Shown one piece after another: positions 2,141 to 21,474 of a stretch of 21,474 nucleotides of DNA. Location: assembly GCA_019057635.1 (NCBI GenBank), contig DXJL01000083.1:1-21474 (forward strand), given 5' to 3'. Under the pieces are notes generated by a model. The model did no database searches, was not told the DNA's origin, and saw only the letters and a list, made by a program, of their open reading frames with translations. This DNA comes from Candidatus Heimdallarchaeota archaeon (GTDB taxonomy: Archaea > Asgardarchaeota > Heimdallarchaeia > Hodarchaeales > Hodarchaeaceae). The translations under genes and the position numbers were made by a program. The first letter of the stretch is position 1; each line of letters begins with the position of its first letter.

Positions 2141-5100
2141 ATGAGGATTAGAATATTTCAAGTACAACATGTTGTGCTATTAACAATCTTAACGTTAAAC
2201 GTTTTTGCCTTGATGATTAATTTCAATAGTGTATTAGGTGGGGAAACTGAAGGCTTCACAACAGACCTATTACGAGGATTAGGAGTTTCAACACACGATG
2301 AGGATAAAACAAAATCCCCGATTCCACGACTAACTGCTGAGGATCTGGCCAATTACAACGAAAAAAACCAAATAAGCCGTTTCCCAGTCACGACATCAAA
2401 AATAGCTAACAGTTTCTCTCTTCCTACTTGGGGTGGAGCGGGGTTCATGTTTCGAAAGAATATAACAATAGATTCGTCTAAAGTATTAGCTAATTTGAAT
2501 GATTTTCCTGTATTGGTTGATCTCTATGGAGATAAGGATCTTTTCGGTGTACGTCAATCGACTGGCTATGATATTATGTTCACAGATGCTAGTGGGAATA
2601 AACTAGATCATGAAATCGAAATTTTTGAACAGGAAGTTCCCCGCTTAATAGCGTGGGTTAAAACGGATCTATCAAGTTCAACAGATACCATAATCTCTAT
2701 GTATTTCGGCAACGACACAATTCCTAATCAAGCTAACCCAACTGGAGTGTGGGCTAACAATTATGAGGGTGTATATCACCTCAGTGAAGATCCAACGGGA
2801 ACAATCTATGATAGTACCGCTAATACTAATGATGGATCAGCAGCAGGTTCTATGACAAGTTCTGATCAGGAAGAAGGAATTTTTGATGGAAGTGTAGATT
2901 TCGATGGATCAAATGATCTAATAAACATTGGAGATGTAAATTCGAATTCTTGGACTGGGATTACCGCTCAAGCATGGATTTTCCATGACACAACTGGCGA
3001 TGATCGTATTATTTGTAAATCTCCATCTGGAGTCACATCAGCGCATATCATATCCTTAGCTGTAGTTAGTAGTGGTTCAAATGATCGAATGAGAGTTCGA
3101 TTATCAACAGACGGTACTGGAGGATCTGCAGCTATCAGTCGAGATTCTGCCATGTCATTCACGACTGGTACGTGGCATCATGTAGCTTTCACATGGGATA
3201 GTGCTTCAGAAAGAATTTATTTATACATTGATGGATCTCAAGATAGTAACAATTATTTTAAGGATGGAGATTCTATTGATGATTCATCCTTACCTGTTAT
3301 TTTAGCCAATGTAAATACTGGAGAAGATGAGCGGTATTATGATGGAAAAATTGATGAAGCACGTCTTTCTAATGTTGCGCGTTCGGCAAATTGGATAGGT
3401 ACAGAGTATAACAATCAGTTTTCCCCATACTCTTTCTATTCAGTAGGTGCATTAGAAGAACCTCCTTCATCAGAACTATACAGATTTAGAAAAGATCTAG
3501 TGATTGATAACACTAAAGTCTCTGGAAGCAGTGATCTCTCACAAATCAATGTGTTGTTTGATATTTATGATACTGATATTCATAAAGATGGGAGAATTCA
3601 GATTGGTGGTAATAATCTTGTATTCAAAAACCAAGGTACAGATACAGAGCTTTATTATGAAATAGAGGAATGGAACCAGCTATTCAACGATACACATGCT
3701 CATTTGCGTGTTTGGGTTCAAGTAGATACTCTATATGCTAATATTGATACTCTTATTACCATGTATTATGGAAATCAAGCGAATTTTGGTTATCACCAAC
3801 CAGATATCGTCTGGAGTGATTATATTGGAGTGTGGCATCTGGGAGATTCTGTAAGTGATGAGGGTTCCGCTGTCAATGTTCATACCGATTCAACCGCAAA
3901 TATTAACCATGGGAATCAACATGGGAATGATGATACAACAGGAGTAATCGGTAATGCCCAAGATTTTGATGGTACAAATGATTATGTAGAAATGGGTGAT
4001 ATTGATATACTTGAATTAAGTGGGGGTACTTTCTTCACGATATCTGGCTGGTTTTATCGCGATTCAACATCGTCAACTGATGTTATTATTGATAAATTTC
4101 ATCCACGTTCTCCTGAATATACAGGTTACACCTTGTACATTGATGGTTCTGATGGTTTACTACATATCATTGTAGCTGATGATGATGATGATGGTCTTCA
4201 TATGACCGCGGATATTGATTTTAATGCCGTACCTTCGGATTGGTATTCCTTCTACATCACATTCGATACAGGAGTGAATTCAGATACATCATCTTGGAAT
4301 ATATATATCAACGGAGTAGATAATACATCCTTGAGAGAGTTTTACGGAGCTGGTGCTAGTTATAGTGGTAATGACGATTTTTCCTCTCCTAACAATCCCA
4401 AATCGTTCACAATTGGAGCTCATGCAAATAATACTAATTTTTTCGATGGTAAAATAGATGAAATCCGTTTTATTGAACAAGAACTATCATTCGATCGTAT
4501 TAATACCGAATATACAAACCAGTATGATCCTAATTCATTCTATAGCGTAAGTACTGAAGTTGAGAACACTGATTGGTGGTTAGATGAGTCTTATGGAAGG
4601 AAAAAGGATATAATTGTAGATAGTCAGCAGTTAGGTCAAACGGATGAGACTGTAAATGTGAGACCATGGGCACCAGGCTATACACAAACTTGGAATCATT
4701 ACAATCGTATTGGTGCAGTACAAGATTATTTAGCCATTGATGAGGTGGAATATGATAATGATGGGACTTTTATCTATACTTCCGTTGATGCGTCAAATCG
4801 ATATAGCTCATACAAACTTAAAGGACTCCAAAATGAATTTGACGGAAGTATTACAAGTATTACTCTTCATAGTCGGGCTAGAAGAAGGACAGTTTCGGGA
4901 TCTGGCTCCGTATTCTCATCAAATATTCGTGTTTTCGTGCGACCTGCAACACAGAATTACTACGGAAGTTCACAATGGGCAAGTACTGGATATAATTCTT
5001 TCACTGATACATGGAATACTAATCCTGTCACTGGCCAGCCTTGGTCTTGGGATGATCTTTCAGATCTAGAAATTGGTGTACGAGGATACATTGATTATAA

Positions 5101-8100
5101 CCAGACTGAAACTGTTGTGGAATTGAGAATCACTCAATTATATGCCGAGATTACCTATACAAGAGATAAGGATATATTTAACTTTCCATTATCATTAAAT
5201 CTTTATGATTCTGATTTAAAAACAGATGTTCAACCTGACGCTGACGATATTGCTTTTTACGATACAATAGGAAGGAAATTAGACCATGATTTGACGTTTG
5301 ATCAAAATTTCAATACAACTCACGCACATTTATCAGCCCACATCAATATCGCGAGAATTTCCATATCAAGTAACACCATTGTCTCAATGTATTACGGAAA
5401 TTCAACAATTGGTAATCAACAAAACCCAGATGCGGTGTGGGATGATCTCTACAGTGCAACATGGCATCTCGATGAGTCAAGTGGAGGAGTTGATGCTATA
5501 AAGGATGCTACTTCAAATAATAATCATGGTACTGACAATGGAACCCCAACCTTAGGTACATCAGGAGTGGTTGGACCCTCTATAGGTTTTGATGATGTTG
5601 ATGATTTTATAAACGTTACAGATGATTCGAGCCTTCGTTTCGACAAGTTTATCACTGCTTCTGCTTGGATTAATCCTGATGTTACAGACAAATGGCAAAC
5701 AATTCTTTCAAAAATGGATGGACAAACTGAACATCTATATTTTGTACTAGATAACACTAATCTCTACATAGGTTTAGATCCAATAAGAGTAGATTGGAAT
5801 ACTGGAATAAGCATCAGCAGTGGTACATGGCAACATGTCGCACTGACATATGATGGAGAAATCCTTAGAGTTTATAAGAATGGAGTATTGGGCGCATCAA
5901 CAATTGGTGAAGGAACATTATCATTAGAAAACAATAACCATTTACTACATATTGGTTATAATGAAGGCTGGACTGGTGAAAAATGGGATGGTTATCTTGA
6001 TGAAATTCGCCTCTCTAGAACTGCAAGAGCAATTGATTGGTTGAAATTAGCTTACCTAAACCAAATGCCTTCTAGTGCCTTGTTAACCATTAGTTCTGAA
6101 AATGACCATGCTACTCCAGTCATAAATGATTTTAGTACAGACGATCCTGGTGATGGTCAACCAACTTTTTGGGCAAACATTACTGATCACGATTCTTCTG
6201 TATTAAGCGTCACCCTAAGTTTAAATGGGACAGATCATCTGATGAGCCAAAACGGAAGCGGACTCTGGATTTATCAACCAATTGGGGTTTCATATGGAGA
6301 TTATTATGAATATCAGATAATTAATGCTTCAGATACTGTTGGAAATTACTTAACAATTGCTTCAATAGAGAAGAATATCACTTTTAATTACGATTCTGTT
6401 ATACCTGGTGTGATAGACTGGGAATATTATTCAGGAACTAAAGAATTTAAAGCAAATGTTTCTGACACTTGGGGAGTAATTGATACTGTAATAATAAATG
6501 TGACTTACCATGAAAACATGGCTGACACAAGCAGCCTTTGGGCTGTTATGCAGAATACAGCCTCTGGATTCATGAACGACACTATCATAATGATTGAGGG
6601 GACGATGAATTTTGTTATTACTCTTAACGATACATATGGAAATTCATTCACTTCATCAGAACATCCAGGATTTGTCGTAAACACACCACCAGAGGCATCC
6701 AATTTGAACTTGTCTCGGAATTCTTCCTCTATCTTGCTTCCAGTGACTAGTAATGACACCTTGTACTTTTTGTACAGTTACAGTGATGCTGAACTAGATC
6801 CCGAATCGGGATCAGTGATTCGGTGGGAAAAATGGAATGGTACACATTGGAATATTCAATCCGCTTATAATGATCTGAAAAATATCACAGCGGGAGTACT
6901 GACTCGTGACGATGTATGGCGGGTACAGTTTCAGCCTAATGATGGAAAAGACTTTGGTGATTGGTATGTTTCGGGTAATATCACTATTCAAAACACTGTT
7001 CCTATTGTTTTCAATGTTGAGATAAGTCCAAGTGTGCCTACAACAAATTCAACCTTAATCGTTGAATATAGCTGGTTAGATATTGATACTGGAGATATTG
7101 AGACTGGAAGTCAAATCAGATGGTACCGTGATAATGGAAATGGATCTGGTTTTCTCCTCCTTAATCAGTACAACGATTTGCTGCAGCTTCCAGAAAATGA
7201 GACCACAAAAGATGACCAATTTTATCTTACAATAACTCCTGGAGACGGAATCGGATTAGGAAATATATTCACCTCTGGAACCATAACTATCCTTAATACG
7301 CCTCCTACATTAATAGTTAAAATTAATGACAATACAGTGCCAGCAACAGTTGCTAATGACACAAATTTAGATGCTACATATCAATATTCAGATGTAGATG
7401 GAGATAACGAAACCAGTGCATCTCTAGAAATCCGCTGGTGGCGATTCAATTTGACAAGTGGGAAATTTGAGTCATTTGTCAATGGTACATTAACAGTGTC
7501 GTCTACCTCAACGAATACATCTGAATTATGGCGTGTAGACATGTGGATAAACGATGGGACAGATTATAGTGAATGGACTTCCTCTGCCACAATTAGTATC
7601 GGTGTTCAACCTAATCAGGCACCTAGCGCGCTACAAGTTAATTTAACTTCAAGTAATCCAGTAGCTGGAGGGTCATTATATGCAAATTATACTTATTTCG
7701 ATCCTGATGGCGACAGTGAATCTCTAACGTCTTTTCATTGGTATAAAAATGGAATTTATCAGCCCCAATTCGATGGTATTCGCAATCTTCTCACTGCTTC
7801 CCTGATAAAAGGTGATAATTGGACTGTAGAAGTTAGACCTCAAGATAATAAAAATGATTATGGAGAGTGGAATTCCAGTCTACCTATAAAGATTCTTAAT
7901 ACTGCTCCAGTAGTATTAACAGCGGAAATTTTTCCAGCTACAAATGTATATACCTCTAGTACATTATTAATAAACTATCAAGGAACTGACGTAGACGAGG
8001 ATAGTATTACTTTAATTTCTGTTGTGTGGATTAATGGTAGTCAAGAAATAGTGGGATTATATAATGAGACAGAAGTTCCTTCCACGTATTTAAAGAAGGG

Positions 8101-11100
8101 AGAGACGTGGAAATATGTACTTAGGATTTTTGATGGTACTGATTGGTCTGATAACAGAACCTCAGAAAATATCACGGTATTAAACTCTCTAATGTCGTTT
8201 GATAGTGTTTCATTAACAGGAGGAGCTGATACACTAGAGGATATTGGAATCGATTATTCTTACACAGATTTGGATAGTGATCTAATTAATTTGGGGCAAA
8301 CAAAGATAAATTGGACGATTGAGTATGCTTCTGGAGGTAATCTAACTGTTGATGGAGTATGGGCATTAAGTAATACGTACGTTGTTGCAGGTGATACTAT
8401 AACAGTAGAAATAACACCTCATGATGGAGAAAGTCTTGGTGTGACTTGGCAGCCGTATAGAACAAGATTGATAATAGGTAATGCCATTCCTACAATTTCA
8501 GGACAACCAAATATTCTAGGTCCTGATAATAGTACAGATTTTTACGCTTCTGATGAGCTTCATTTCAACTATACTGCTACTGATCCAGATTTTAGTGAAA
8601 GCAGTGCATTGTATAATATAGATTATGATCTTGATGGATATGTGGTAGGCGCAAAATATCGTTGGTACCGAAATGGTATCTTGGTATCTGAACTCAATAC
8701 ACCTATAGTACCAATAGCATATCTGGTACGTGGTGACGAGTGGAAAGCAAGTGTTAAACCACGCGACCGCTTCGGTGATTTTGGTTCGTGGGTAAATTCA
8801 ACAGTTATCATTATTACGAATAGTCGCCCTCTCATTAGTGAATTTCGTGAAACTAACTCTTACACAACTTCGGATATGAATCTTGATATTGAGTTTACTT
8901 ACTCGGATTATGATGGTGATCCTATCAATCTTTCAAACACAATTATTCAATGGTATAATTATAGTACTCTCATTGTGGGTACAGAAATTACGGTTATATC
9001 CACAGAACAGGTCGGGAATGAATATATTGTAATAATTCGCTTATTCTCGGATTACTACATTAGAGGAGACAATATCACGGTAGAAGTTCAACCACATGAT
9101 GGTACTGAATGGGCACTTCAATCAAATACGAGTTTTGACATAATTATTGGGAATGCGAGACCATTTGCCTTTAATGTAAACCTGAAGCCTAATGGAACTG
9201 ACACTTCAGCCTATACAACTGATAATCTAAATGTCTCTTGGTCATATTCAGATCCAGATAATGATCTTGAAGTGACATCTCTCGCAAAGATTATCTGGAA
9301 AAACAAGGGAATTCCTCAACCTATGTTTGAAAATCAGAGCTCGATTCTTTCAGATAATATTAATAAAGGTGACGTGTGGACAATTGAAATTTTTGTCTTT
9401 GATGGGATAGAATGGAGTAAAGACCCCAAAATATCTACCCCACTTATAGTAGAGAATACTCCTCCCATAATTATTTCAGTAGCAATAATAAGTGATAGTG
9501 GAAATACCTCTGAGACGTATGCTGATACGAATCTTGTGATTGATCTCTTTGATGGTGTTAATTACACTGATGTCGATGGTGATTTCATTTTATACTTTGG
9601 AACAATAACACGATGGTATAGAAATGGAGTCCATCAACCGAGCTATGATGATGCAAATCTTCTACCCAGTTCAGTTCTTTTCAAGGGTGATTATTGGTAT
9701 ATTGAAGTTCAAATTACTGATGACCTATTTGCATATTCATTAAATCAAACTTCGCAGAATATAACCATCGTAAATAAAGCCCCATCTGTTATTTCTGTTT
9801 CTCTTACTGGAAATGAATACACAGGATTTTTTGTAGAGAATGAGGATGTTAGTATCGCAATTTCTGTTTTGGATATAGATATAGGAGATTCTGAGCTATC
9901 TTATATCACTTGGACGGTGAATGGAGTGCCTAATTCACTTTATGATAACCTACGCACAATTCCTAAGAATGGAACCCAAGCTGGAGACACATGGAATGCG
10001 ACAATTTTAGCCTCGGATGGATATGATAATACTACCAGCCTGTTTTATTTTTCGTTATTTATTCAAAGCAGTCCAAAAATTCATAATTTCACGGCAAATG
10101 TAGTGGAAGAGGAAGTTGATGGAACTTTCGAAATTTCTATTGAAATGACAGATGCTTTGAATCACAATATCCTTCTCGGTAGATATGACGTGTATTTAAA
10201 CAAGTCAGGATCAATAGTCAAGACTGGCTTCTTAGAGGCTAATGCTACTCATTGGTTCTTTACATTCGACTTGCTAGATTACGCTGATGGGAGTTATTTC
10301 AACACATCAGCCGTTGTAACAATTACCGCACAATCTATTATCGGAGTAACTACTATTGAGTCATTTAACTTTACTTTGATCGATGGAGTTGCTCCAAAAA
10401 TCAAAACGACGGGCGGTTCTTCTGGAGTTTGGTTTGATAAAGATATTGAAACTAATCCTACAACCCTCACCTTCTACGCAGCCATTGAAGAATATGGGTC
10501 AGGTGTATCTAGTGTCCTCTTATACTACTATTTCAATCTCGTTGATGTTGAGGGTGAAGGATCTTCTATCTATCAAGAAGATGGTGATTTTTCCACAATT
10601 GAGATGACATATCTTAGAACCGATGGTGAAATACTAATTTATTCAGCCTCTGTTGACTATATTCAGGATGGAAATGATTATGAACCTCTGTTCTACGTTT
10701 CTACATCTGACAACGCAGGAAATAGTAATCCGAATGCGTTTGATATCAGAAATCATCCTGAAAGAATCGAACTTATTCCATATCAGCCCGAAGGGCTTCC
10801 CCCCGAGTTACTGTTAATTGCTGGTCTTGCCGTCTTTCTAATATTCATTGGAGCAATTGTCTATGTACGGTTCATACGAAAACCGGAGATTATTGGCTTA
10901 GATAAAGATTTAGTAATGACTGGAGTCCCCAAAATTGATGAAGAGGAAATAATTACTTCTATTGACCGTCACACTTTGGGCCTTGTAGTCAGTTTCTTCG
11001 ATCAGCTACATGGGCCTATTCCTATTATTGTCATCCCTGAGATGCTCAAAGATAATTATAGCAAATTAGTAGCACTTTCTGATCGTTCGTTCAGTGGTAC

Positions 11101-11461
11101 TGGGTTTAGTGACGACTTTGCAAGCGAGATTCCGTCTTCATACGATTTCGTACTTGCTGAACAACTAAGGATAAGTGTTATGAGTTTTGGATTTGCATTG
11201 GAGAAACCAGAAGCACGTGGCGGAAAAGAAAACCTCACTGTAAATATTCTCGTCCAAAAGGATATCTTTACTCTTATTGAGCAATTCAAAGATGAGATTC
11301 AAGGAAAAGTGCATGAATTCCATCTGACTATGGCAAAGGATTCTGGAAACAAGGTATTGATTCGCGTTAAAGCTAATGAAATCAGAAAATATGTCAGTGC
11401 TATAGTAATGAGCTATGTAAACATCTACGGAACTACTGACCTCATTGAAGAAGAAGATTGA
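2141..11461 (+). CDS. Giant single-pass cell-surface protein: signal/anchor, 3x (DUF2341 + LamG/concanavalin-like), Ig/cadherin-like stalk, TM helix, cytoplasmic longin (FLCN/SMCR8/NPRL2-like) domain
   Basis: Uninterrupted ORF; ATG at 2141 follows GGAG (the track uses TTG 2126). Hydrophobic N-terminus. DUF2341 motifs (RKNITID..FPVLV..DIMFTD..KLDHEIE..MYFGN). LamG motifs (WHHVAFTWD..LYIDG..DGKIDEARLS). TM LLLIAGLAVFLIFIGAIVYV followed by RFIRK, then a ~200-aa tail. Confidence 0.9.
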   Translation: MRIRIFQVQHVVLLTILTLNVFALMINFNSVLGGETEGFTTDLLRGLGVSTHDEDKTKSPIPRLTAEDLANYNEKNQISRFPVTTSKIANSFSLPTWGGAGFMFRKNITIDSSKVLANLNDFPVLVDLYGDKDLFGVRQSTGYDIMFTDASGNKLDHEIEIFEQEVPRLIAWVKTDLSSSTDTIISMYFGNDTIPNQANPTGVWANNYEGVYHLSEDPTGTIYDSTANTNDGSAAGSMTSSDQEEGIFDGSVDFDGSNDLINIGDVNSNSWTGITAQAWIFHDTTGDDRIICKSPSGVTSAHIISLAVVSSGSNDRMRVRLSTDGTGGSAAISRDSAMSFTTGTWHHVAFTWDSASERIYLYIDGSQDSNNYFKDGDSIDDSSLPVILANVNTGEDERYYDGKIDEARLSNVARSANWIGTEYNNQFSPYSFYSVGALEEPPSSELYRFRKDLVIDNTKVSGSSDLSQINVLFDIYDTDIHKDGRIQIGGNNLVFKNQGTDTELYYEIEEWNQLFNDTHAHLRVWVQVDTLYANIDTLITMYYGNQANFGYHQPDIVWSDYIGVWHLGDSVSDEGSAVNVHTDSTANINHGNQHGNDDTTGVIGNAQDFDGTNDYVEMGDIDILELSGGTFFTISGWFYRDSTSSTDVIIDKFHPRSPEYTGYTLYIDGSDGLLHIIVADDDDDGLHMTADIDFNAVPSDWYSFYITFDTGVNSDTSSWNIYINGVDNTSLREFYGAGASYSGNDDFSSPNNPKSFTIGAHANNTNFFDGKIDEIRFIEQELSFDRINTEYTNQYDPNSFYSVSTEVENTDWWLDESYGRKKDIIVDSQQLGQTDETVNVRPWAPGYTQTWNHYNRIGAVQDYLAIDEVEYDNDGTFIYTSVDASNRYSSYKLKGLQNEFDGSITSITLHSRARRRTVSGSGSVFSSNIRVFVRPATQNYYGSSQWASTGYNSFTDTWNTNPVTGQPWSWDDLSDLEIGVRGYIDYNQTETVVELRITQLYAEITYTRDKDIFNFPLSLNLYDSDLKTDVQPDADDIAFYDTIGRKLDHDLTFDQNFNTTHAHLSAHINIARISISSNTIVSMYYGNSTIGNQQNPDAVWDDLYSATWHLDESSGGVDAIKDATSNNNHGTDNGTPTLGTSGVVGPSIGFDDVDDFINVTDDSSLRFDKFITASAWINPDVTDKWQTILSKMDGQTEHLYFVLDNTNLYIGLDPIRVDWNTGISISSGTWQHVALTYDGEILRVYKNGVLGASTIGEGTLSLENNNHLLHIGYNEGWTGEKWDGYLDEIRLSRTARAIDWLKLAYLNQMPSSALLTISSENDHATPVINDFSTDDPGDGQPTFWANITDHDSSVLSVTLSLNGTDHLMSQNGSGLWIYQPIGVSYGDYYEYQIINASDTVGNYLTIASIEKNITFNYDSVIPGVIDWEYYSGTKEFKANVSDTWGVIDTVIINVTYHENMADTSSLWAVMQNTASGFMNDTIIMIEGTMNFVITLNDTYGNSFTSSEHPGFVVNTPPEASNLNLSRNSSSILLPVTSNDTLYFLYSYSDAELDPESGSVIRWEKWNGTHWNIQSAYNDLKNITAGVLTRDDVWRVQFQPNDGKDFGDWYVSGNITIQNTVPIVFNVEISPSVPTTNSTLIVEYSWLDIDTGDIETGSQIRWYRDNGNGSGFLLLNQYNDLLQLPENETTKDDQFYLTITPGDGIGLGNIFTSGTITILNTPPTLIVKINDNTVPATVANDTNLDATYQYSDVDGDNETSASLEIRWWRFNLTSGKFESFVNGTLTVSSTSTNTSELWRVDMWINDGTDYSEWTSSATISIGVQPNQAPSALQVNLTSSNPVAGGSLYANYTYFDPDGDSESLTSFHWYKNGIYQPQFDGIRNLLTASLIKGDNWTVEVRPQDNKNDYGEWNSSLPIKILNTAPVVLTAEIFPATNVYTSSTLLINYQGTDVDEDSITLISVVWINGSQEIVGLYNETEVPSTYLKKGETWKYVLRIFDGTDWSDNRTSENITVLNSLMSFDSVSLTGGADTLEDIGIDYSYTDLDSDLINLGQTKINWTIEYASGGNLTVDGVWALSNTYVVAGDTITVEITPHDGESLGVTWQPYRTRLIIGNAIPTISGQPNILGPDNSTDFYASDELHFNYTATDPDFSESSALYNIDYDLDGYVVGAKYRWYRNGILVSELNTPIVPIAYLVRGDEWKASVKPRDRFGDFGSWVNSTVIIITNSRPLISEFRETNSYTTSDMNLDIEFTYSDYDGDPINLSNTIIQWYNYSTLIVGTEITVISTEQVGNEYIVIIRLFSDYYIRGDNITVEVQPHDGTEWALQSNTSFDIIIGNARPFAFNVNLKPNGTDTSAYTTDNLNVSWSYSDPDNDLEVTSLAKIIWKNKGIPQPMFENQSSILSDNINKGDVWTIEIFVFDGIEWSKDPKISTPLIVENTPPIIISVAIISDSGNTSETYADTNLVIDLFDGVNYTDVDGDFILYFGTITRWYRNGVHQPSYDDANLLPSSVLFKGDYWYIEVQITDDLFAYSLNQTSQNITIVNKAPSVISVSLTGNEYTGFFVENEDVSIAISVLDIDIGDSELSYITWTVNGVPNSLYDNLRTIPKNGTQAGDTWNATILASDGYDNTTSLFYFSLFIQSSPKIHNFTANVVEEEVDGTFEISIEMTDALNHNILLGRYDVYLNKSGSIVKTGFLEANATHWFFTFDLLDYADGSYFNTSAVVTITAQSIIGVTTIESFNFTLIDGVAPKIKTTGGSSGVWFDKDIETNPTTLTFYAAIEEYGSGVSSVLLYYYFNLVDVEGEGSSIYQEDGDFSTIEMTYLRTDGEILIYSASVDYIQDGNDYEPLFYVSTSDNAGNSNPNAFDIRNHPERIELIPYQPEGLPPELLLIAGLAVFLIFIGAIVYVRFIRKPEIIGLDKDLVMTGVPKIDEEEIITSIDRHTLGLVVSFFDQLHGPIPIIVIPEMLKDNYSKLVALSDRSFSGTGFSDDFASEIPSSYDFVLAEQLRISVMSFGFALEKPEARGGKENLTVNILVQKDIFTLIEQFKDEIQGKVHEFHLTMAKDSGNKVLIRVKANEIRKYVSAIVMSYVNIYGTTDLIEEED
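2450..6100 (+). repeat. Three tandem DUF2341+LamG modules (about 2450-3457, 3479-4563, 4592-6100)
   Basis: Each repeats RK-I-ID/VD, MY(F/Y)GN, VW, (Y/W)HL, DST/DAT-N-N-G, FD---D-I/V and DG-(I/L)DE-R. Confidence 0.85.
6680..10066 (+). repeat. Eleven ~100-aa Ig-like/cadherin-like repeats
   Basis: Units start NTPP, NTVP, NTPP, NQAP, NTAP, NSLM, NAIP, NSRP, NARP, NTPP, NKAP. Consensus Y-Y-D-D-D-E...W...(K)GD-W...V-P-DG...W..S..I-I. Confidence 0.85.
10808..10867 (+). other. C-terminal transmembrane helix of the giant protein
   Basis: 20 hydrophobic residues followed by RFIRK (positive-inside rule), placing the tail in the cytoplasm. Confidence 0.9.
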
Positions 11462-11484
11462 TTTTCTGAGCTCTTCCCCTTTTT

Positions 11485-13692
11485 CTAATCACTTTCAAGC
11501 AGTGAAAGGTACTGCATTAACTTCTGAGAAGTTTCCTCATCTTCTTTCACTTCTTTCTTCACTAAATCAACTTTTCGTGGGAATTTAGTATCTTTGGATT
11601 TGATCAAAGTCTTGATAATAATATCAATCATTCGTGCCGCAAAATCTACTGCACCTGCTGACTCTATAGGTAATTGCAAGGCTTGAGTTAGTAGTCCACT
11701 TAATTGGGCTTGACTAACAGTCTCAATGATATTAACTCCCCCAATCGGATGCCCACGTTGAACAAAATTAATAAGTACACCCCTCTTTTGAGTTTGCTCC
11801 ACGGAAAAACCTATTTGATCGGTGTCAGGGAGGATTACAAACTCACCATTTGTCTTAATTTCTAAAGGAATAAGATAATCAATTGTATCTAATAAACTTC
11901 CTTTCTCCACTACTATTCTGGGTGAAACGAGGGGTTGTTCTTTGAGTTTCTTGATAGTCTCGTAGATAACTCTCGCTGAGAAGGCCATAGAGGAGACCCC
12001 ATCTTCGAAATAACCAACATTCGCTAGATTCATTTCATAGGCGAGTAGATAGAGGATTTCATCTTGATTTATGCCAGTGGATACTTGAGAGCTTCCTATT
12101 AGCCCTTTCTTACCCGTATGATCCTGAAGAAACAGACTTACTTGAGCGTTTGAGGTATCCTCGATCAGTTCTACTTTGAAACTAATTCCTCTAGTACCCG
12201 GTAAAGTAATAGTACTATCTACGGCTTCTGTTTGTAGAGGAATCTCCATTGGAACAACTGTTGGCTTTTTCTTCACCTTTTCCTTTTCTTTTTTCTTTAT
12301 CTCTGGGGTTAGATATTTACTGACAATTTCATCAATAGCCATCTTAGGTCTTCCCACAGCGAAGACTAGACATTTAATAATCATTTCTTCATCAAGCTTA
12401 TTTTTGAGATGAGCAGAAAAGATATCAAGCAGTCTTTGACCTGTTAAATTTTTGAGTTTCTTTTCTCCTTCAGATGTTCTTACAATGGGAATGTATTTCA
12501 GAAAAACATCACTCAGTAAGGGAACTGGGATGCCTGAGGAAGCAGCAATTTTAAATAATTCACCATATCCTGATTTTACCACTTCAGTCGCTTCATCAGG
12601 CTCGATTCCACAAAATTCTACTAAATAAACAATTTGATTTACCACCTCTTCGGCTTGAGAGGGTGTTTCTAGTTCACTGACCTCTGGAGTCGTAACTAAT
12701 GGCCTTTCAGGTTCAGAGGAATCTGGCAATTCTGTTGGAGAGGACGAAATTTCCTGAGATATTGTTGGACTAGGGGGCATTTCTGAGGGTGTACTTGGTC
12801 GTTCAGCACTTGGTTGTACTGGTTTAACGGTTGGTGTTGTTTCTGCTTGTACAGGTATAGGTTTAGTTATCGATATGGGTGTTGAAGAAGGTGAGGTTGT
12901 GATTTCTTCTTCTGAACCTTCAGTTGCTTGTTGCATGAGTGATTGTAACCGTTGCAAGACAGCTGGATCACCAGCCATTTTCGGTGCAGTTATCTGAATT
13001 TTTGATTGCGAGGATGTCTTAACCTTAGCTTTCACTTTGCGTAGAGTCATTCCTTTCCCATGGTACTCCTCAATTTCACCAATAGCACGTTCATCAACAA
13101 AGTCGCTCTGGGCGATGTCTGGAACAGAAAGTTCGAAGATACGACCAAAAGAATCAATAACAGTCTCAGGTTTATAAATAGATGTTCTGAAGAAGCGAAG
13201 AGGTTCACTATATTCTAGTTGAAAGCTCTCTTTAAGTTGTGTGTGAATTGATTCATAATTGGGGGAACTACGCACAAGATCATTCTTATGCAAAAATACA
13301 AAGACTTCAGCTTCAGGGGAGTAGTTATATAATTTCTCAATAGATGCTTTAAAGTATTGAAAAGCGTTATTCCGAGTAGTTTTATTTGCTGTATCAATTA
13401 AAAAGATAAAGATCTTTACATTGCTAAATACAAAGGGACTGAAGGCATTTAAGAATTTTTTCAGAAAAATCTTCTGTCCACCCAAATCAACAATCGTGAT
13501 AGGAGTGTTTTTTATTGTGACTGATAAACGTTCATAGTTAATTGTTGCAGAAAGTTTGTCTACGTCTTCAGTACGTTGTTTTAAAAAGAAAATTCGTTTT
13601 ACTGCGGTTTTCCCTGCCTCAGAAAGGCCAGCAATAAGGATTTTGTGACCTAGACGCGATGAAATCTCTGATTCGGATACCCACTCTGACAT
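11485..13692 (-). CDS. Rag/Gtr1-like small GTPase with long C-terminal extension (Pro/Ser/Thr/Glu linker, helical region, duplicated domain)
   Basis: G1 GLSEAGKT, G2 ATINY, G3 DLGGQ, G4 HKND, G5 RTSIY. The HKxD and TSI motifs are Rag-type. The rest of the protein is unassigned. Confidence 0.85.
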   Translation of the reverse strand: MSEWVSESEISSRLGHKILIAGLSEAGKTAVKRIFFLKQRTEDVDKLSATINYERLSVTIKNTPITIVDLGGQKIFLKKFLNAFSPFVFSNVKIFIFLIDTANKTTRNNAFQYFKASIEKLYNYSPEAEVFVFLHKNDLVRSSPNYESIHTQLKESFQLEYSEPLRFFRTSIYKPETVIDSFGRIFELSVPDIAQSDFVDERAIGEIEEYHGKGMTLRKVKAKVKTSSQSKIQITAPKMAGDPAVLQRLQSLMQQATEGSEEEITTSPSSTPISITKPIPVQAETTPTVKPVQPSAERPSTPSEMPPSPTISQEISSSPTELPDSSEPERPLVTTPEVSELETPSQAEEVVNQIVYLVEFCGIEPDEATEVVKSGYGELFKIAASSGIPVPLLSDVFLKYIPIVRTSEGEKKLKNLTGQRLLDIFSAHLKNKLDEEMIIKCLVFAVGRPKMAIDEIVSKYLTPEIKKKEKEKVKKKPTVVPMEIPLQTEAVDSTITLPGTRGISFKVELIEDTSNAQVSLFLQDHTGKKGLIGSSQVSTGINQDEILYLLAYEMNLANVGYFEDGVSSMAFSARVIYETIKKLKEQPLVSPRIVVEKGSLLDTIDYLIPLEIKTNGEFVILPDTDQIGFSVEQTQKRGVLINFVQRGHPIGGVNIIETVSQAQLSGLLTQALQLPIESAGAVDFAARMIDIIIKTLIKSKDTKFPRKVDLVKKEVKEDEETSQKLMQYLSLLESD

Positions 13693-13730
13693 GACGACGA
13701 CCTTGTCTCCATTGATACGTTGAACCGCTT

Positions 13731-13757
13731 TGAATGTTTCTTTGTGAATGTTTCTTT
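13731..13757. promoter_or_regulatory. Tandem direct repeat in the divergent Rag/Rag promoter region
   Basis: TGAATGTTTCTTT at 13731-13743 and 13745-13757; partial third copy TGAATGTT at 13840-13847. Confidence 0.4.
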
Positions 13758-14009
13758 TTAGGATTTCTAATTAAATCTTCAGAGCTTCATAATTTGAAGT
13801 GAATATAATTAAGAAAACTTCTTGAGGATTTGTTTTCAATGAATGTTCAAGAGATTATTTAGTGAATCTAGCGCGTTTATGAAAAAGTATAATATTAAAA
13901 AGGCTAGATCGAAAGTACATACCTCTGGTTATACAATGTTGAAGGAGTAAAATAGTACTTCATTAATAAGGTGCAACACAAGAAAATCATATGCGAGGAA
14001 CCTTTAACA

Positions 14010-14906
14010 ATGTCTGGAACTACTGTATCAAAAATTTTGTTTATGGGTCTCGGTGCTAGCGGAAAAAGTAGCATCCGATCGATCGTATTTGAAGGCAAAT
14101 CCCTTGAGGATGTCAAGGATTATAATGCCACAATAAATTATACCCGTTCTACCCGAAATATTATTGATTCTGCCTTCCAGATATTCGACTGCGGAGGACA
14201 AGAATCTTTCATCTCAGTTTTTGTTGGAGACCAAGCTGAATTTATTTTTAGTGGTGTATCCATTCTTGTTTGGGTTGTAGATGTTTCCAATTTCGATGCT
14301 GTTTCTACATCCAAATTTTATTTTGATCATGCTGTAAATAGACTTCATGAGTTTTCTCCTGACGCTGTGATTTACTGCTTATTCCATAAGATCGATTTGC
14401 TTTTGCTAGATATGCGTGAACAAGTCATTGAGACATTGGAATCATTTTTCACAACAGATAAGGACATTCAAATTTTCTATCGTGGAACCTCAATATATGA
14501 TCACTCGACATTTGCCGTTGTGGGAGAGATGGTTCAAACGCTCATTACTAAAAGTAGTAAGGCGAAGACTGTCTCTGAGGCCCTTCAGGAATTTGTTAAG
14601 CAGAATGTGGAATTATCAGGCATTGCTATTTATTCAGAAGATGGGTTACCGGTTTTCGAAGAGGGCAACCTTGCGAATAAAATTATCCTTCCCGCTAACT
14701 TGTGGTTATCAAATTATGAACGTCTCAGAGGAGATTTTCCTGGAAATAACTTTAAAACCACTTTAGAAACCAATGATTATATGTTCGTCTTTCATCAATT
14801 AAAATCAGAAGTTCTTCTTGCTGGAATTGCCCGTAAAGTATCACCTCTTCAGTATGTACTGGTTAAAATGGATAATCTTGCAGAAATTGTCGGTGAGTTA
14901 TTATAA
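14010..14906 (+). CDS. RagA/Gtr1-like GTPase with C-terminal Roadblock/LC7 domain
   Basis: [42 protein letters not shown] and TSIYD closely follow RagA as recalled ([40 protein letters not shown], TSIWD). The C-terminal ~115 aa (14562-14903; [14 protein letters not shown]) is Roadblock-like. ATG 14010 with upstream GAGGA is preferred over GTG 13971. Confidence 0.92.
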   Translation: [298 protein letters not shown]

Positions 14907-14922
14907 GAATGAGATTGAGCTC

Positions 14923-15942
14923 TTAATCAAATTTCAATATTCCACTCTCTATATTGCTACCTGACATCACATTTGTTTGTATTGCAAGGTTTATTACTTC
15001 CTCAATAAATTTTAGAGAGAAGCCAACCTCAGAAGATAGTAACGTTAAATCAAGGTCTGATTTATTTTTAAATGCTGTCAATATCCGTTTTGCTAATAAT
15101 CCTCTAATTTTTTTTACGGGTAAAGACAAGAACTGGTCTAGTTCTTCGAAATCTAGCTTTCCTGAAAGTCTAAGCCGATATTGCAGGCCTAAATCCGATT
15201 GTGTTTCTAATCCAGATTTAGAGAGTAATTGCCTTCCCATGATTGGATCAGTCACCATTTCTAGCCGATAAAGGTTACCTCTAGGCATCTTCTTCTTAAA
15301 TTCATCCACTATTGTTCGTACTTTTGTTTTAACAAGGGGTGTTGGTTGATCACGAAAAATTACCTGAATTTGTTTCTTTTCTGAAACAACAAGTAAGATA
15401 GGTGCAGTATCTGGGATCATTGAAAGGTTTCCAAAAGCCTCAATTGTATTTGCCTCAGTTAAATAATACGCATCAATACCTCTATCTATGATCTGAATAT
15501 TTTGGTCAATTTTCTTTAAGATTTCTTCATCATAAAGATCTTTGTCACTTACAATATTATAAACGCGAAGAGTGCGTTTTATCATGAGCTTAAGGAATTC
15601 AGTATACTTACTTATGGAATTTGAAGTTGTTATGACCCAGAAAAAAATCATTCGACCGAATTGAGCAATTCTATTATCCATAGAATCTTTTGCGGATAAG
15701 GAAAACATGAAAGCTTCTGACACGTAGGGGTCTTTGGGAGTGGGGATTGGACCATAAGCACGCACTTCCATTGGACGAAAGGGAGTGCTAGTACCAATGG
15801 CGGTCAATGTCTTTATTGCCATGGTAAATGCTTCATCGTCAGCAAGAGGAGAAGAGTTGAAAATATTTCTGGGGCCTTCATCCTCGAAGACTGTCACTAT
15901 AAGTCCATCAGTCAATGATTTAGTTCTATCTTTTTTATTCAT
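14923..15942 (-). CDS. Soluble protein: N-terminal longin/uDENN-like domain, possible gelsolin-like middle domain, C-terminal PCI-like winged helix
   Basis: GLIVTVFEDEGPRNIF resembles the longin beta1-GP-beta2 hairpin. The C-terminus LDLTLLSSEVGFSLKFIEEVINLAIQTNVMSG..SGILKF has a wHTH pattern. ATG 15942 (MNKKD) is preferred over 15999. Confidence 0.6.
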   Translation of the reverse strand: MNKKDRTKSLTDGLIVTVFEDEGPRNIFNSSPLADDEAFTMAIKTLTAIGTSTPFRPMEVRAYGPIPTPKDPYVSEAFMFSLSAKDSMDNRIAQFGRMIFFWVITTSNSISKYTEFLKLMIKRTLRVYNIVSDKDLYDEEILKKIDQNIQIIDRGIDAYYLTEANTIEAFGNLSMIPDTAPILLVVSEKKQIQVIFRDQPTPLVKTKVRTIVDEFKKKMPRGNLYRLEMVTDPIMGRQLLSKSGLETQSDLGLQYRLRLSGKLDFEELDQFLSLPVKKIRGLLAKRILTAFKNKSDLDLTLLSSEVGFSLKFIEEVINLAIQTNVMSGSNIESGILKFD

Positions 15943-16461
15943 GACTAAATTTGTCAGACAACTCTTTAAAAAGAATTCTGGACAGGATGAGTTACACATC
16001 TACTATCTGGAAAAAATTAGCTCCCGAGGAGAGATAGCTTTCGAGGGACTGCTTGAAACAAGCCCACTAGCGATATCCCAAACACCAATGATCTTCCACC
16101 AGTTTTTACCATTCTTCTCTTACCTTTGACAGGTAACTCGTCTAACGTAGTTACAAGGGAATCTGGCTTATGAGCTAAGTGAATATTTTTTCATCACCTC
16201 AGGGTTGAAGAAGTGAGGGAAGGAGGACTTTCAAGGTTGTGAGAGAGAGAGGTAAACGAATGCGAGAAATATTCCTTTGTCGGCCAAAATTGATCATGTT
16301 TGAATGGCTTCCTAGAAATTTCGAGTCAGATTACTTGTTGGAGATTAGGCTTCTACTTAATTAATCATATTGAAAATTAATAAAAAATCCTAGACTTTCC
16401 TACCGCAGATGTCTTTTAATTACTAGTTTTTTCATATTTCTCTAGGATGATGAAAAGAATT

Positions 16462-17508
16462 TCATTTCAAAAAGTCCAATTTGACATGTTTTTTTACTAA
16501 TTCTTCGAGTAGGGTTATCTTTTTTGTCTCATCCTTGGTAAAGAGAATTTCCATATCATCAATTAGCTTAGCAACTGCGAAAGTATCATTAGTGGCGAGA
16601 AGGATTGGAATGTTTCTAGTATCTGCTTTAGATTGAATAATTGGGTCATCAGGAAGAATATTATTAGTAAGAACTATTCCTGATGTACTGGAGTCTAATG
16701 CAGCTGTAATCATATCAATTCGGTCTCCTGGTGTGATTATCAATTTATTTTCGTATTGCCACAGTGGCTTCGTTATCACCTGTGCAGCACTCATAGCCCC
16801 TACGAAGATATGATTGACTATATTCATTAATCCCCCCTCGCCTGCAATAATTTTTGTGAATAGCGTCTTATAAAGATAATCGATCGTAAAATGAGTTAGA
16901 TCTTCCTCATAAGGGATAATTCCTAAGACTGGTACTCCTAATTCATTAAAAATATCCATATGGAGATTCTTGAACTCCTCAATATCCTTAACTTGATTTA
17001 CAATAACACCTGCAAGATCACTCGAATCAGAGAGCACACAATTTCTCAGAAATGCAATCTCATCAACGATTTCACTGCCTTCACCGCTCAATATTAATAG
17101 CAGCTGAGCGCCTACATTCCTTGCAATGGTCATTGGATCTAAAAACACTGAGTGGCCAAAAGCCAGATTTCGTCCTCCCTCAATTAAAACAACGTCATGG
17201 TCTTTACTTACGCTATTGCAAATTTCTTTCAGTTTTTTACTAGTTGATTGTTCATCATACATGAAACGTAACTTATTATGGTCAAAGCCTAGTGAAATAT
17301 CCTCAGGTTTCTCTGTAAGACCTAAAATATTTGAAACTAAGGAGGCATCATAATCCCAGAGACGTTTCTTTTGATAAAGCAATCGGTCTCCCAAGGGTTT
17401 CATATACCCGCAAGAAATGTTTTTTTCTGAAAGAGCTTTTGCTATACCAATAATTATACTGGTTTTACCCGCTTCTTCATGAGTGGAAGCTACTACAATC
17501 CTTTTCAT
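16462..17508 (-). CDS. Phosphotransacetylase N-terminal-like protein (BioD-like/AAA_26 P-loop + DRTGG domain), no Pta catalytic domain
   Basis: ASTHEEAGKTS, GYMKPLG, VVLIEGG, GVIVNQV, PVLGIIP, VGAM and ITPGDRID motifs. SD AGGTGA overlaps the upstream stop codon. Confidence 0.88.
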   Translation of the reverse strand: MKRIVVASTHEEAGKTSIIIGIAKALSEKNISCGYMKPLGDRLLYQKKRLWDYDASLVSNILGLTEKPEDISLGFDHNKLRFMYDEQSTSKKLKEICNSVSKDHDVVLIEGGRNLAFGHSVFLDPMTIARNVGAQLLLILSGEGSEIVDEIAFLRNCVLSDSSDLAGVIVNQVKDIEEFKNLHMDIFNELGVPVLGIIPYEEDLTHFTIDYLYKTLFTKIIAGEGGLMNIVNHIFVGAMSAAQVITKPLWQYENKLIITPGDRIDMITAALDSSTSGIVLTNNILPDDPIIQSKADTRNIPILLATNDTFAVAKLIDDMEILFTKDETKKITLLEELVKKHVKLDFLK

Positions 17509-17514
17509 TTTTAT

Positions 17515-19677: not shown

Positions 19678-19818
19678 GACCTACAGCAATTGGATCAAGA
19701 ATTTTTTAATTCTATGTAAATATAAGCAGTTATAATTTGGTTTTGCTTCTTTTATAATATTAATTATCTTCTAGTAATATCCCTTAGACTGGTGAAAAAA
19801 GAAGTTCTATTATAAGTG

Positions 19819-21474
19819 TTAAAAAGTCATCCGTAGCTCGTAAACCCCTTCAGTAAGTCGTTTATCTAGGTTAGGAAATAATTTCTCAAATAGAGCGAGC
19901 ATACCTCTGTTTTCTAACAATACTTCGGCACTAAAGCCTAGTAAACCTGCAGATTTAGCGAGATAAGTAAGATATTTCATTAATTCGGTTCCCACACCTT
20001 TCCGATGATAATCATCTCTTACCACAAAAGCAGCTTCAGCTGTATGGGAATGTTGATCGATTCCATATTGACCTACACCAACAATCTCTTGTGAAATGCC
20101 TTTAGATACTACAGCAAGGACTATCATCTCTGTTGAAAAATCGATGATACAAAAATCTTGAAGTCTTGAATGTGGTAAATCTTTTCTAACACTCATAAAT
20201 CGACGATAAAGAGATTGATCAGACAAATCGTAGAAGAAATCCTTTAATAGTGGCTCATCACTAATTTTGACTGGACGAAGCATGATTTCAAGACCGTCTG
20301 TAGTAGTACGCCAAGTTTCCAAGTGTTCAGGATATTCCCCTTTTTTACCAGGGATAAATGCTTGATCTTTGAAAATTAAATTTTCTTTTTTTGCTTCCTT
20401 AATTAGTTGTGATTTGAAACGAGGATGAGCAATAGAAATTAATTGCATGGCACGTTCACGAATGTTTTTACCATGCAAATAACAAATACCAAATTCGGTG
20501 ATCACGTAATGAATATCTCCTCGATTAAGGGTAACACCAGCCCCTTCAGTTAAAAATGGGACTATCCTTGAAGTTTCCCCATTATCCGCAGTGGACTGAA
20601 TTGTGAGTATAGACTTACCCTTATTAGCAAGAATTGCTCCTCGCATGAAATCAGCTTGGCCTCCAATACCTGAATAAAAAATTTTACCAATGGATTCAGA
20701 AGAAGCCTGTCCTGTTAAATCTATTTGCAGTCCACTGTTAATGGCAGTCATATTATCATGTTGGGCAATTGTTAACGGATCATTAGTATACTCGATTCGA
20801 CGCAGTTCAATGGAGGGATTGTCATGAATAAAATCGTATGTCGATTGGGAACCCATGCAAAAGGATGCTACTGATTTTCCACGATTGATAGATTTTTTTG
20901 TATTATCTATGACACCTAATTTCATTAACTGAACGAGACCATCGCTTACGAGTTCAGTATGAACACCTAGATGCTTTTTATCTTTTAAATTCGCCATCAC
21001 AGCATTCGGTATACTCCCGTAACCAACTTGTATCGTATCTCCATCTTGAATTAAACGAGATACATATTGACCAATTTTATTTGCTACATCGTCACTTGCA
21101 GGTTCCTGCTTGTACTCCAATATAGACTCATCATAAGGTAGAATATAGTCAATATCCTTCACATGTAAAAATCCATCTCCATGGACACGGGGGACATTTT
21201 TATTCATCTGGGCAATGACAATACCAGCATTCTCGATCGCAGCCTTGACAATATCGACAGAAACACCCAAACTTACATAACCGTGATCATCAGGTGGAGT
21301 AACTTGGATCAGAGCGACATCTATTGGTACAAGACCGCTGTAAAATATACTGGGTGTTTTTGAAAGAAAAATTGGCGTATAATCAGAAAGGCCACTATTA
21401 ACAGCCTCCCGAGTAGAATTTGCAACAAAAAATGAGTTGAGTCTAAAGTTTATTTGATAAGCAGCATCTGTATA
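19819..21474 (-). CDS. Acetyl-CoA hydrolase/CoA-transferase (4-hydroxybutyrate CoA-transferase-like) fused to a C-terminal GNAT domain; 5' end lies outside the window
   Basis: The frame is open from the right edge (YTDAAYQINFRLNSFFV...DYTPIFLS...PPDDHGYVSLGVS), so the track's start at 21270 is an artefact. Motifs: TIQVGYGSIP, LGVHTE, QIDLTGQ, SGIGGQADF, VITEFG. GNAT: SLYRRF, AEAAFVVRDDYHRKGVGT, N-GM. Confidence 0.9.
   Translation of the reverse strand, partial: YTDAAYQINFRLNSFFVANSTREAVNSGLSDYTPIFLSKTPSIFYSGLVPIDVALIQVTPPDDHGYVSLGVSVDIVKAAIENAGIVIAQMNKNVPRVHGDGFLHVKDIDYILPYDESILEYKQEPASDDVANKIGQYVSRLIQDGDTIQVGYGSIPNAVMANLKDKKHLGVHTELVSDGLVQLMKLGVIDNTKKSINRGKSVASFCMGSQSTYDFIHDNPSIELRRIEYTNDPLTIAQHDNMTAINSGLQIDLTGQASSESIGKIFYSGIGGQADFMRGAILANKGKSILTIQSTADNGETSRIVPFLTEGAGVTLNRGDIHYVITEFGICYLHGKNIRERAMQLISIAHPRFKSQLIKEAKKENLIFKDQAFIPGKKGEYPEHLETWRTTTDGLEIMLRPVKISDEPLLKDFFYDLSDQSLYRRFMSVRKDLPHSRLQDFCIIDFSTEMIVLAVVSKGISQEIVGVGQYGIDQHSHTAEAAFVVRDDYHRKGVGTELMKYLTYLAKSAGLLGFSAEVLLENRGMLALFEKLFPNLDKRLTEGVYELRMTF

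Follow-up and report, generated by a model that had tools for sequence, protein, structure and literature searches.

A candidate receptor-coupled Rag GTPase module with two GAP-type longin proteins in a Heimdallarchaeota archaeon

A 21,474-nucleotide (nt) stretch of a Candidatus Heimdallarchaeota archaeon genome (assembly GCA_019057635.1, contig DXJL01000083.1), hereafter the window, whose numbering is used throughout, carries four adjoining large open reading frames (ORFs) at 2141-15942, on strands + - + -. They encode a giant surface protein with one transmembrane (TM) helix and a cytoplasmic longin tail, two Rag-type GTPases (Rag735 and Rag311), and p339, a soluble longin protein; all four were found at the positions where the original prediction had described a run of contiguous genes. 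We assign a probability of about 0.5 to the reading that the four genes work as one functional module, with the Rag-type GTPase pair at its centre and two longin proteins of the GTPase-activating protein (GAP) type serving it, one of them the tail of a surface protein that would be heavily glycosylated and have a fast-evolving ectodomain. Its gene content, folds, motifs and conserved linkage are observed, and a GAP role is the most likely one for the tail and p339. The proposal of a receptor-coupled Rag module stands as far as its parts, which are recovered by Pfam and by structural models, and its linkage, which is conserved in p339-centred loci; the coupling itself carries the odds just given. 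The source genome comprises 3.19 Mb in 214 contigs at 91.6% completeness, and the window is its contig C48.

In eukaryotes, FLCN-FNIP acts on RagC/D, GATOR1 (NPRL2-NPRL3-DEPDC5) on RagA/B, and C9orf72-SMCR8 on Arf. The GAP longins of eukaryotes have a further C-terminal part, DENN or NPRL, the C-terminal domains of NPRL2/3 ending in a winged helix, and each GAP pair has one arginine-finger subunit. How Rag GTPases and longin GAPs worked before eukaryotes is the open question on which the locus bears. In passages of PMC12290439, a Gly-Pro (GP) motif neighbouring the arginine finger either closes the loop that leads into strand 2 or opens that strand. In the same passages, C9orf72, SMCR8, FLCN and NPRL2 have the motif, FNIP2, NPRL3, adaptin, TRAPP and DENND longins lack it, and Asgard 'FLCN/SMCR8-type' longins have both motif and finger; whether ArfR or Rag/Gtr GTPases are the partners of these Asgard longins is posed there as an open question.

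Folds and motifs of the four proteins

The giant protein (2141..11461, + strand) ends in a cytoplasmic tail of 197 residues (10868..11458, +). An AlphaFold2 model built on a 35-row alignment, with a predicted local distance difference test score (pLDDT) of 94 and a predicted template modelling score of 0.89, consists of two helices followed by a longin domain of beta-beta-alpha-beta-beta-beta topology and three helices, and the chain ends after the longin helices. When the model was compared with 48,161 chains by VIA-align, the top match was a dimeric Lokiarchaeota longin (8yqg_B; Z 14.4, root-mean-square deviation (rmsd) 2.9 over 141 aligned residues). High scores were also obtained for the folliculin complex (6nzd_H, Z 12.2), C9orf72-SMCR8 (7o2w_A, 11.7), the Lst4 longin (4zy8_C, 11.2), GATOR1 (8fw5_B, 11.1), the SEA complex (8adl_S, 10.4), 6ulg_N (10.3) and DENND1A (9.1). 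The longins of TRAPP, VAMP7 and AP scored at most 8.4, and the roadblock chains 3kye, 3leq and 7f8m, whose fold is related to that of longins, scored 6.2-6.5. Foldseek returned 6ulg_N (1.5e-04) and 8dhb_J (7.5e-04), along with LOV/PAS folds of poor rmsd.

The tail carries a GP motif at residues 49-50, where it opens strand 2 (residues 49-56), and the model places Arg117 in the beta4-beta5 loop. An exhaustive HMMER search defined a tail family of 144 cluster representatives at E <=0.001. Counted over the representatives that cover each column, position 49 is glycine in 124/124, position 50 proline in 119/124, position 117 arginine in 125/129 and position 173 arginine in 128/128. Nearly all 144 representatives bear the match at their C-terminus; the host proteins have up to 5809 residues, and many are cut by contig ends. 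Of the 60 members inspected, almost all have a TM helix ahead of the tail. Across the phylum, 52 of a sample of 301 genomes have the tail: 18/20 in the window's genus-level group, 18/29 and 7/11 in two more families belonging to the same class, with few outside these three groups. A genome holds up to 10 copies, and open frames with the tail reach 8821-10431 residues elsewhere in the group. Tail-bearing genes also occur in tandem arrays, with two on contig C2 of the source genome (7048-11741; the contig ends inside the second) and three in each of two loci from other genomes (L042 and L051; such loci carry L numbers below).

The second longin protein, p339 (14923..15942, - strand), has 339 residues. 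Its 38 homologues, named only 'hypothetical protein', are mostly 337-352 residues long. The start was set at 15942 rather than at the ORF end at 15999 because of these lengths and because the extra 57 nt, amounting to 19 spurious codons, belong to a dispersed repeat. An AlphaFold model (pLDDT 79.7) divides the protein into a longin domain (residues 5-155; 15478-15930, -), a gelsolin-like middle domain (155-250; 15193-15477, -) and a winged helix (265-339; 14926-15150, -). The longin domain matches 8yqg_B (Z 10.4), 8dhb_J (10.0), 7o2w_A and 6nzd_H (both 9.8), and Lst4 and 9o5a_H (both 9.7). The middle domain aligns over 87-98 residues with gelsolin domains and Thorarchaeota ProGel (Z 9.0-9.4), and the C-terminal domain resembles UFL1/DDRGK1 (Z 9.8), with which weak helix-turn-helix or winged-helix sequence matches (E ~0.2) agree. 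No more than 139 residues of p339 align with any one solved chain, and a DENN- or NPRL-type C-terminal domain is absent. Gly23, Pro24, Arg91 and Arg97 are invariant in 25 sequences; in the model, the GP pair opens strand 2 (residues 23-29) and the conserved arginine lies in the beta4-beta5 connection.

By fold and by motif, the tail and p339 are thus longins of the FLCN/NPRL2/SMCR8 kind, as had been claimed. The description of p339 as a soluble longin protein with a winged helix-turn-helix is borne out by the model for both of those domains, and had overlooked the gelsolin-like domain between them. An hhalign comparison of the tail and p339 families found no significant relation (11 columns, probability 0.5), so the two longins are not demonstrably close paralogues. 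A soluble protein of 340 residues, P0086, has a p339-like GP-longin N-terminus followed by a tail-type domain at residues 151-338, which shows that a single chain can hold both longin types.

Both GTPases lie well above the Pfam cut-off of 22 bits for Gtr1_RagA, and their best solved relatives are Gtr1/RagA, which upholds their identification as Rag-like. Rag311 (14010..14906, +; 9.1e-37, 127.1 bits) likely starts at ATG 14010 and then has 298 residues; its ORF opens at GTG 13971, giving 311. It consists of a G domain (14028-14558, +) and a C-terminal domain (14559-14903, +). The motifs G1 GLGASGKSS, G3 DCGGQE and G4 HKID are invariant in 19 sequences, over which mean column identity is 73%. 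A Rag311 profile matches yeast Gtr1 (2.3e-35) over query residues 2-264 and through residue 279 of the chain. Since the match runs past the G domain, Rag311 has a putative Gtr1-like C-terminal domain. Rag735 (11485..13692, -; 8.4e-31, 107.6 bits) has 735 residues and comprises a G domain (13102-13653, -), a variable P/S/T/E-rich linker (~12613-13094) and a conserved C-terminal region of 375 residues (11488-12612), for which the ESM Atlas gave no usable match. Its motifs G1 GLSEAGKT, G3 DLGGQK and G4 HKND are invariant in nine sequences, and the G domains alone align with Rag311 in hhalign. At the extreme C-terminus (11488-11550), the peptide ETSxKLxxYLxLLExD follows a variable spacer in 8/9 aligned sequences and could be a short docking motif.

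Searches of PDB sequences placed both proteins nearer to RagA/Gtr1 than to RagC/Gtr2, with 4.6e-27 versus 1.6e-12 for Rag311 and, by phmmer, 5.5e-19 versus 4.2e-05 for Rag735, whose matches span residues 14-197 only. The two are accordingly both RagA-like rather than an A-type and a C-type Rag, which rules out orthology of the pair to RagA/RagC.

Upstream of its tail, the giant protein has 3106 residues if translated from ATG 2141 and 3111 if from TTG 2126. The translation opens with a hydrophobic segment (2171..2239, +), either a signal or an anchor, of a kind that also opens many full-length members of the tail family. Three units of DUF2341 plus the ConA-like Laminin_G_3 domain follow (residues 147-1301; 2564..6028, +). 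Pfam finds each family in three stretches of the protein, with overall E-values of 1e-53 for Laminin_G_3 and 7.8e-14 for DUF2341. With the protein cut into pieces, the unit-wise E-values are 1.7e-19, 2.1e-14 and 2.1e-22 for Laminin_G_3, and 7.9e-06, 1.2e-04 and 2.3e-03 for DUF2341, the last two falling below the Pfam cut-off. Next come about ten repeats of ~100 residues (6713..10075, +) with an acidic D-x-D stretch and an (I/Y)RW(Y)xNG-like motif, a regular expression for which has eight matches at residues 1560-2384 (ATG numbering); Pfam found no family above cut-off at residues 1351-2900. The TM helix (residues ~2895-2914; 10808..10867, +) is followed by RFIRK, in keeping with the positive-inside rule. 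The 2854-residue ectodomain has a single cysteine and 65 N-glycosylation sequons, or 2.28 per 100 residues, compared with 0.14-0.88 in five cytoplasmic neighbours.

The ectodomain is hypervariable. In L013, the closest relative, p339 is 94% and Rag311 98% identical to the proteins of the window, and the TM helix and tail of the giant 80-94%, while bins of 200 residues along its ectodomain show 34-48% identity. L014 is more distant, and its ectodomain reaches 79-94%. This pattern looks like exchange or diversifying selection outside the cell and constancy inside, and the comparison of the window with L013, L014 and L015 suggests that ectodomain types are exchanged between lineages. Such hypervariability hints at contact with partners, prey or viruses, and bears on syntrophy models of eukaryogenesis.

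Recurrence of the gene neighbourhood

The four genes form two convergent pairs, with gaps of 23 nt between the giant gene and Rag735 and of 16 nt between Rag311 and p339. The Rag genes diverge from a spacer at 13693..14009 (317 nt, or 278 nt if Rag311 starts at GTG 13971), inside which both Rag promoters are presumed to lie. The alternating strands rule out a single operon, and the four genes are therefore a gene cluster. As to expression, no RNA run was present among the 24 runs listed, which are marine-sediment and cold-seep metagenomes.

A scan with the p339 alignment, one genome per species, yielded 21 loci, annotated by BLAST and local hidden Markov models. A Rag311-like gene adjoins the p339 homologue in 16 of the 21, and a Rag735-like gene is present too in 11. 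Three loci with paralogues (L020, L027 and L030) have no Rag despite a visible flank, and two (L022 and L028) end at a contig edge. A tail-bearing gene lies within the cluster in eight: L013, L014, L015, L019, L024, L031, L032 and L033. The giants of L013-L015 are orthologues with the same C-terminal tail; those of L019 and L032 are cut by the locus end, and their tails were confirmed by searching the respective genomes. A further tail-bearing protein, of 400 residues, is encoded 6.4 kb past Rag735 in L017, and the same protein is found in L036.

The arrangement of these genes differs from lineage to lineage. The giant gene is convergent on Rag735 in the window, L013-L015 and L024, co-directional after Rag735 in L019, directly ahead of the Rag311-like gene in L031, L033 and L043, and divergent from it in L032. 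At L024:11039-11320, the last 93 residues of the tail alone remain as an ORF beside Rag735, and the conserved position seems to hold a receptor gene in decay. All four parts also occur together in the family-level lineage f22, where L054 encodes a GP-longin of 260 residues, a Rag311-like protein of 319, a giant of 2321 whose tail match has E 1.5e-73, and a Rag735-like protein of 369, in which a P-rich linker joins a G domain to a C-terminal domain of roadblock-like appearance. In family f2, L058 has two Rag genes and a GP-longin gene in one direction. Synteny had been set beforehand as one check on the proposal, and the neighbourhood is found again in relatives, where the gene order takes several forms, and once more in another family-level lineage.

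The source genome holds a second such run. On contig C12 (1853-5597), genes for Rag334, a Rag-like protein of 314 residues, a GP-longin of 271 residues and Rag310 follow one another on the same strand with gaps of 10-21 nt, the 314-residue protein being degenerate (Gtr1_RagA at merely 3.9e-05). A further Rag-like gene lies at C12:8907-9905.

The history of the link was examined on a maximum-likelihood tree of 30 tails. The label 'Rag-adjacent' needs six changes on this tree, at least four of them forced by well-supported branches; after shuffling, the mean was 9.1 changes, and 6/500 shuffles were as low as six. Several 'non-adjacent' tails in these counts lie on short contigs, where their status was really unseen. 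With six changes, the Rag link is not one inherited block.

A second sample was centred on tails, with 20 loci from five other genomes fetched as 20-kb stretches, 8/20 of them cut at a contig end. A Rag-type gene lies within 10 kb in 4/20 (L036, L039, L043 and L044, the Rag of L044 sitting just outside the fetched stretch and being visible in L032). A rough expectation for a random gene is ~3%, from ~7 Rag genes, as counted in the source genome, times 20 kb over a roughly estimated genome size of ~4.5 Mb. The Rag link is real but lineage-restricted, and concerns about one or two receptors per genome.

Other genes recur downstream of Rag735. In L017, L018 and L025 it is followed by a gene for 441-444 residues, the L017 copy of which is of the Tubulin/FtsZ family by Pfam (5.8e-19), and then by one for 1072-1141 residues, the L017 copy being without a Pfam match. 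In L017 and L018, a weakly tail-like longin protein of 311 residues comes next. These stretches downstream of Rag735 have the coordinates L017:15785-20545 and L036:8243-10982.

Proposed mechanism and alternative explanations

Binding, GAP chemistry, signalling direction, ligand and output are the parts of the module that we infer. The tail would hold a longin platform at the plasma membrane, and this platform, alone, as a dimer or paired with p339, would dock the Rag311/Rag735 pair. The conserved arginine beside the GP motif would be presented to the nucleotide pocket, just as RagC receives one from FLCN and RagA from NPRL2. The Rags' nucleotide state would in turn depend on the receptor's position and on its clustering or engagement. 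Since two longins bear the arginine and there are two Rags, each Rag may have a longin of its own. A complex prediction for p339 residues 1-155, Rag311, the tail and GTP gave scores of 0.02 and 0.03 against a mark of 0.32, which amounts to no answer and speaks neither for nor against binding.

Several observations weigh against this reading. At the sequence level, Pfam at E 0.1 gave no family for the tail region or p339, and alignments of the tail and of p339, run as profiles against the PDB (E 10), returned no longin. The tail has no DENN or NPRL-type C-terminal part, and the p339 longin matches AP sigma/mu longins at Z 9.0-9.3, near the 9.7-10.4 of the GAP longins, so that its fold alone does not single out the GAP class. 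The equivalence of Arg117 and Arg91 to FLCN R164 and NPRL2 R78, which sit in the beta4-beta5 connection, is putative, being drawn from loop position rather than from residue superposition. The alternating strands exclude co-transcription of the giant gene with Rag735 and of Rag311 with p339. No full-length p339 orthologue occurs outside the window's genus-level group; among 20 distant p339-like loci beyond it, Rags lie within 7 kb in one (L058), and two others have a non-Rag small GTPase 2.2 kb off. As for the tails, 16 of the 20 sampled loci lack a Rag within 10 kb, a small GTPase of any kind occurs in the fetched stretch of 5/20, three of these five being Rag clusters, and the tail locus on contig C2 has no Rag on its visible side. 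Since most members of the tail family are not near Rags, the wiring may be peculiar to a receptor or two in each genome, or may work in trans.

Control could run in the opposite direction, from the inside out, with the Rags and p339 acting on the receptor. GTP-bound Rags would then dock the tail to position, cluster, traffic or activate the adhesin, and the module would organise the surface or the cytoskeleton; the comparable case is MglA/MglB, which exerts polarity control over surface adhesion complexes in Myxococcus. We regard this arrangement as unlikely. It would give a place to the gelsolin-like domain of p339, although that match combines a middling Z with ~10% identity, and to the Tubulin/FtsZ-family gene after Rag735 in L017, with its same-size counterparts in L018 and L025. 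Many receptors sharing one tail type alongside few Rags would likewise fit one switch acting on many surface proteins. Longin/roadblock platforms are also effector docks in passages of PMC10933270, but the near-universal GP motif and loop arginine are marks tied to catalysis rather than docking in those of PMC12290439. These same marks bear on another doubtful alternative, in which the tail, with or without p339, is not a GAP and either tethers the Rag dimer to the membrane, as Ragulator does, or is a guanine-nucleotide exchange factor (GEF). Most longin platforms act as GEFs, among them Mon1-Ccz1, TRAPP and DENN proteins, DENND1A is itself among the matches of the tail (Z 9.1), and the tail is membrane-anchored like the LAMTOR1-held Ragulator. 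Both longins of the locus carry the arginine, unlike the members of eukaryotic GAP pairs. Longin/roadblock dimers are described mainly as GEFs or platforms in parts of PMC10933270. Roadblocks, however, match the tail worse (Z <=6.5) than GAP-type longins do (10-14), and the GP motif, absent from the FNIP2, NPRL3, TRAPP, adaptin and DENND longins treated in the passages of PMC12290439, is present in 119-124/124 tail representatives.

It is also conceivable, if rather improbable, that there is no specific coupling at all, the tail being a general module of a surface-protein family for dimerisation, sorting or anchoring and the Rag adjacency a matter of local synteny. The 16/20 tail loci that lack a nearby Rag would be expected in that case, as would the tandem arrays that tail-bearing genes form by themselves (C2, L042 and L051) and the dimeric Asgard longin 8yqg as the closest solved fold. 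Relatives of one genus-level group, moreover, share ancestry, so that repeated synteny overstates independence. Yet the adjacency outlasts changes of order and strand, all four parts recur in family f22 (L054), at least four separate branches of the tail tree are involved, and the 4/20 observed exceeds the ~3% roughly expected.

A wider and more speculative proposal can also be made, which we consider unlikely as a whole. Asgard archaea of the Hodarchaeales type would have a true transmembrane receptor-to-small-GTPase pathway made of eukaryotic parts. Giant surface glycoproteins that evolve fast, at most 10 per genome, would carry catalytic longin tails of the FLCN/NPRL2 type; engagement or clustering of their ectodomains would switch a RagA-like pair reserved for them, each Rag having its own arginine-finger longin; and an adaptor with longin, gelsolin-like and winged-helix domains would relay the signal onward, either to transcription or to the cytoskeleton. 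The logic of GATOR1/FLCN-Rag would then have had a pre-eukaryotic ancestor at the plasma membrane, predating TOR and lysosomes.

A receptor-fused longin, single-pass, without a kinase and coupled to a small GTPase, would be an unusual signalling architecture for a prokaryote. The locus provides a matched set of four expressible proteins with domains of modest size, in which tail R117, p339 R91 and both GP motifs are the predicted catalytic residues.

Set against known systems, the locus resembles the eukaryotic Rag longin GAPs in encoding two Rag/Gtr GTPases and two longin proteins, in the closest fold, and in having GP at strand 2 and an arginine in the beta4-beta5 loop; p339 also ends in a winged helix, as do NPRL2/3. 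It differs from them in that a TM helix and a 2900-residue ectodomain are joined to one of its longins, the cluster has no DENN domain or DEPDC5 counterpart, both longins carry the arginine, both Rags are RagA-like, Rag735 has a long and different C-terminal region, and the longins have no sequence-level homology detectable by Pfam or PDB profiles. Like Ragulator-Rag, in which LAMTOR roadblock dimers sit at the lysosome, it encodes a membrane-anchored platform of the roadblock/longin superfamily together with a Rag pair; unlike Ragulator, that platform is a longin (roadblock Z <=6.5), has its own TM helix and presumably resides in the plasma membrane. With MglA-MglB of Myxococcus it shares a prokaryotic small GTPase and a regulator of the roadblock/longin superfamily tied to surface adhesion, but its GTPases are Rag/Gtr and its regulator is a longin with GP and arginine.

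Among archaeal proteins, the closest parallels are the Asgard 'FLCN/SMCR8-type' and 'NPRL2-like' longins, which are likewise archaeal GP-plus-arginine longins found in Heimdallarchaeia. Parts of the preprint by Liu et al. (10.1101/2020.10.19.343400) report Asgard FLCN-like longin+DENN proteins, NPRL2-like longins and fusions with two-component domains, describe an operon with a GTPase that is expressly no Rag, and state that Asgard archaea have no homologue of the mTOR catalytic domain. Compared with these published longins (soluble, longin+DENN, two-component fusions or a non-Rag operon, as far as those parts go), the locus has a receptor tail and linked Rag/Gtr genes. The word 'transmembrane' does not occur in the preprint by Liu et al., nor do 'neighbo' or 'transmembrane' in the Arf preprint 10.1101/2024.02.28.582541. 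PMC12962969 (Nat Microbiol 2026, structural modelling) contains no occurrence of longin, Rag, FLCN, GATOR, Ragulator or NPRL. Passages of Tran et al. (PMC10933270) say of MK-D1 that its GTPase genes do not, as a general rule, share an operon with longin or roadblock genes. The original prediction had professed to know of no described system with this layout, and our literature search agrees with it: Asgard FLCN- and NPRL2-like longins were found, and neither a receptor-fused form nor a Rag-longin-receptor cluster, although the supplementary architectures of Liu et al. lay outside the search and may hold such proteins. In view of the partner question in the passages of PMC12290439 and the remark on gene layout in those of PMC10933270, the locus and its relatives supply a GTPase-regulator pairing for the Rag/Gtr family.

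Flanking genes and a dispersed repeat

An Rfam search of the whole window gave no match. To the left of the cluster, on the minus strand at 53-1816, genes for an RDD-family membrane protein, a PadR-like regulator and a PNPOx-like protein show no visible link to the module. Just upstream of the p339 start, at 15938-16300, lies a dispersed repeat of ~365 nt, with at least 12 near-full-length copies of 76-79% identity in the same genome and many end pieces of ~70 nt at 85-98%; it has no convincing terminal inverted repeats and no Rfam match. Beyond it, three acetyl-CoA-related genes occupy 16462-21474 on the minus strand, encoding a DRTGG/AAA_26 protein, a protein like ADP-forming acetyl-CoA synthetase (ATP-grasp_5, Succ_CoA_lig) and an acetyl-CoA hydrolase/transferase that continues into a fused GNAT domain. 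In L013-L015 the DRTGG/AAA_26 gene and the synthetase-like gene likewise adjoin p339.

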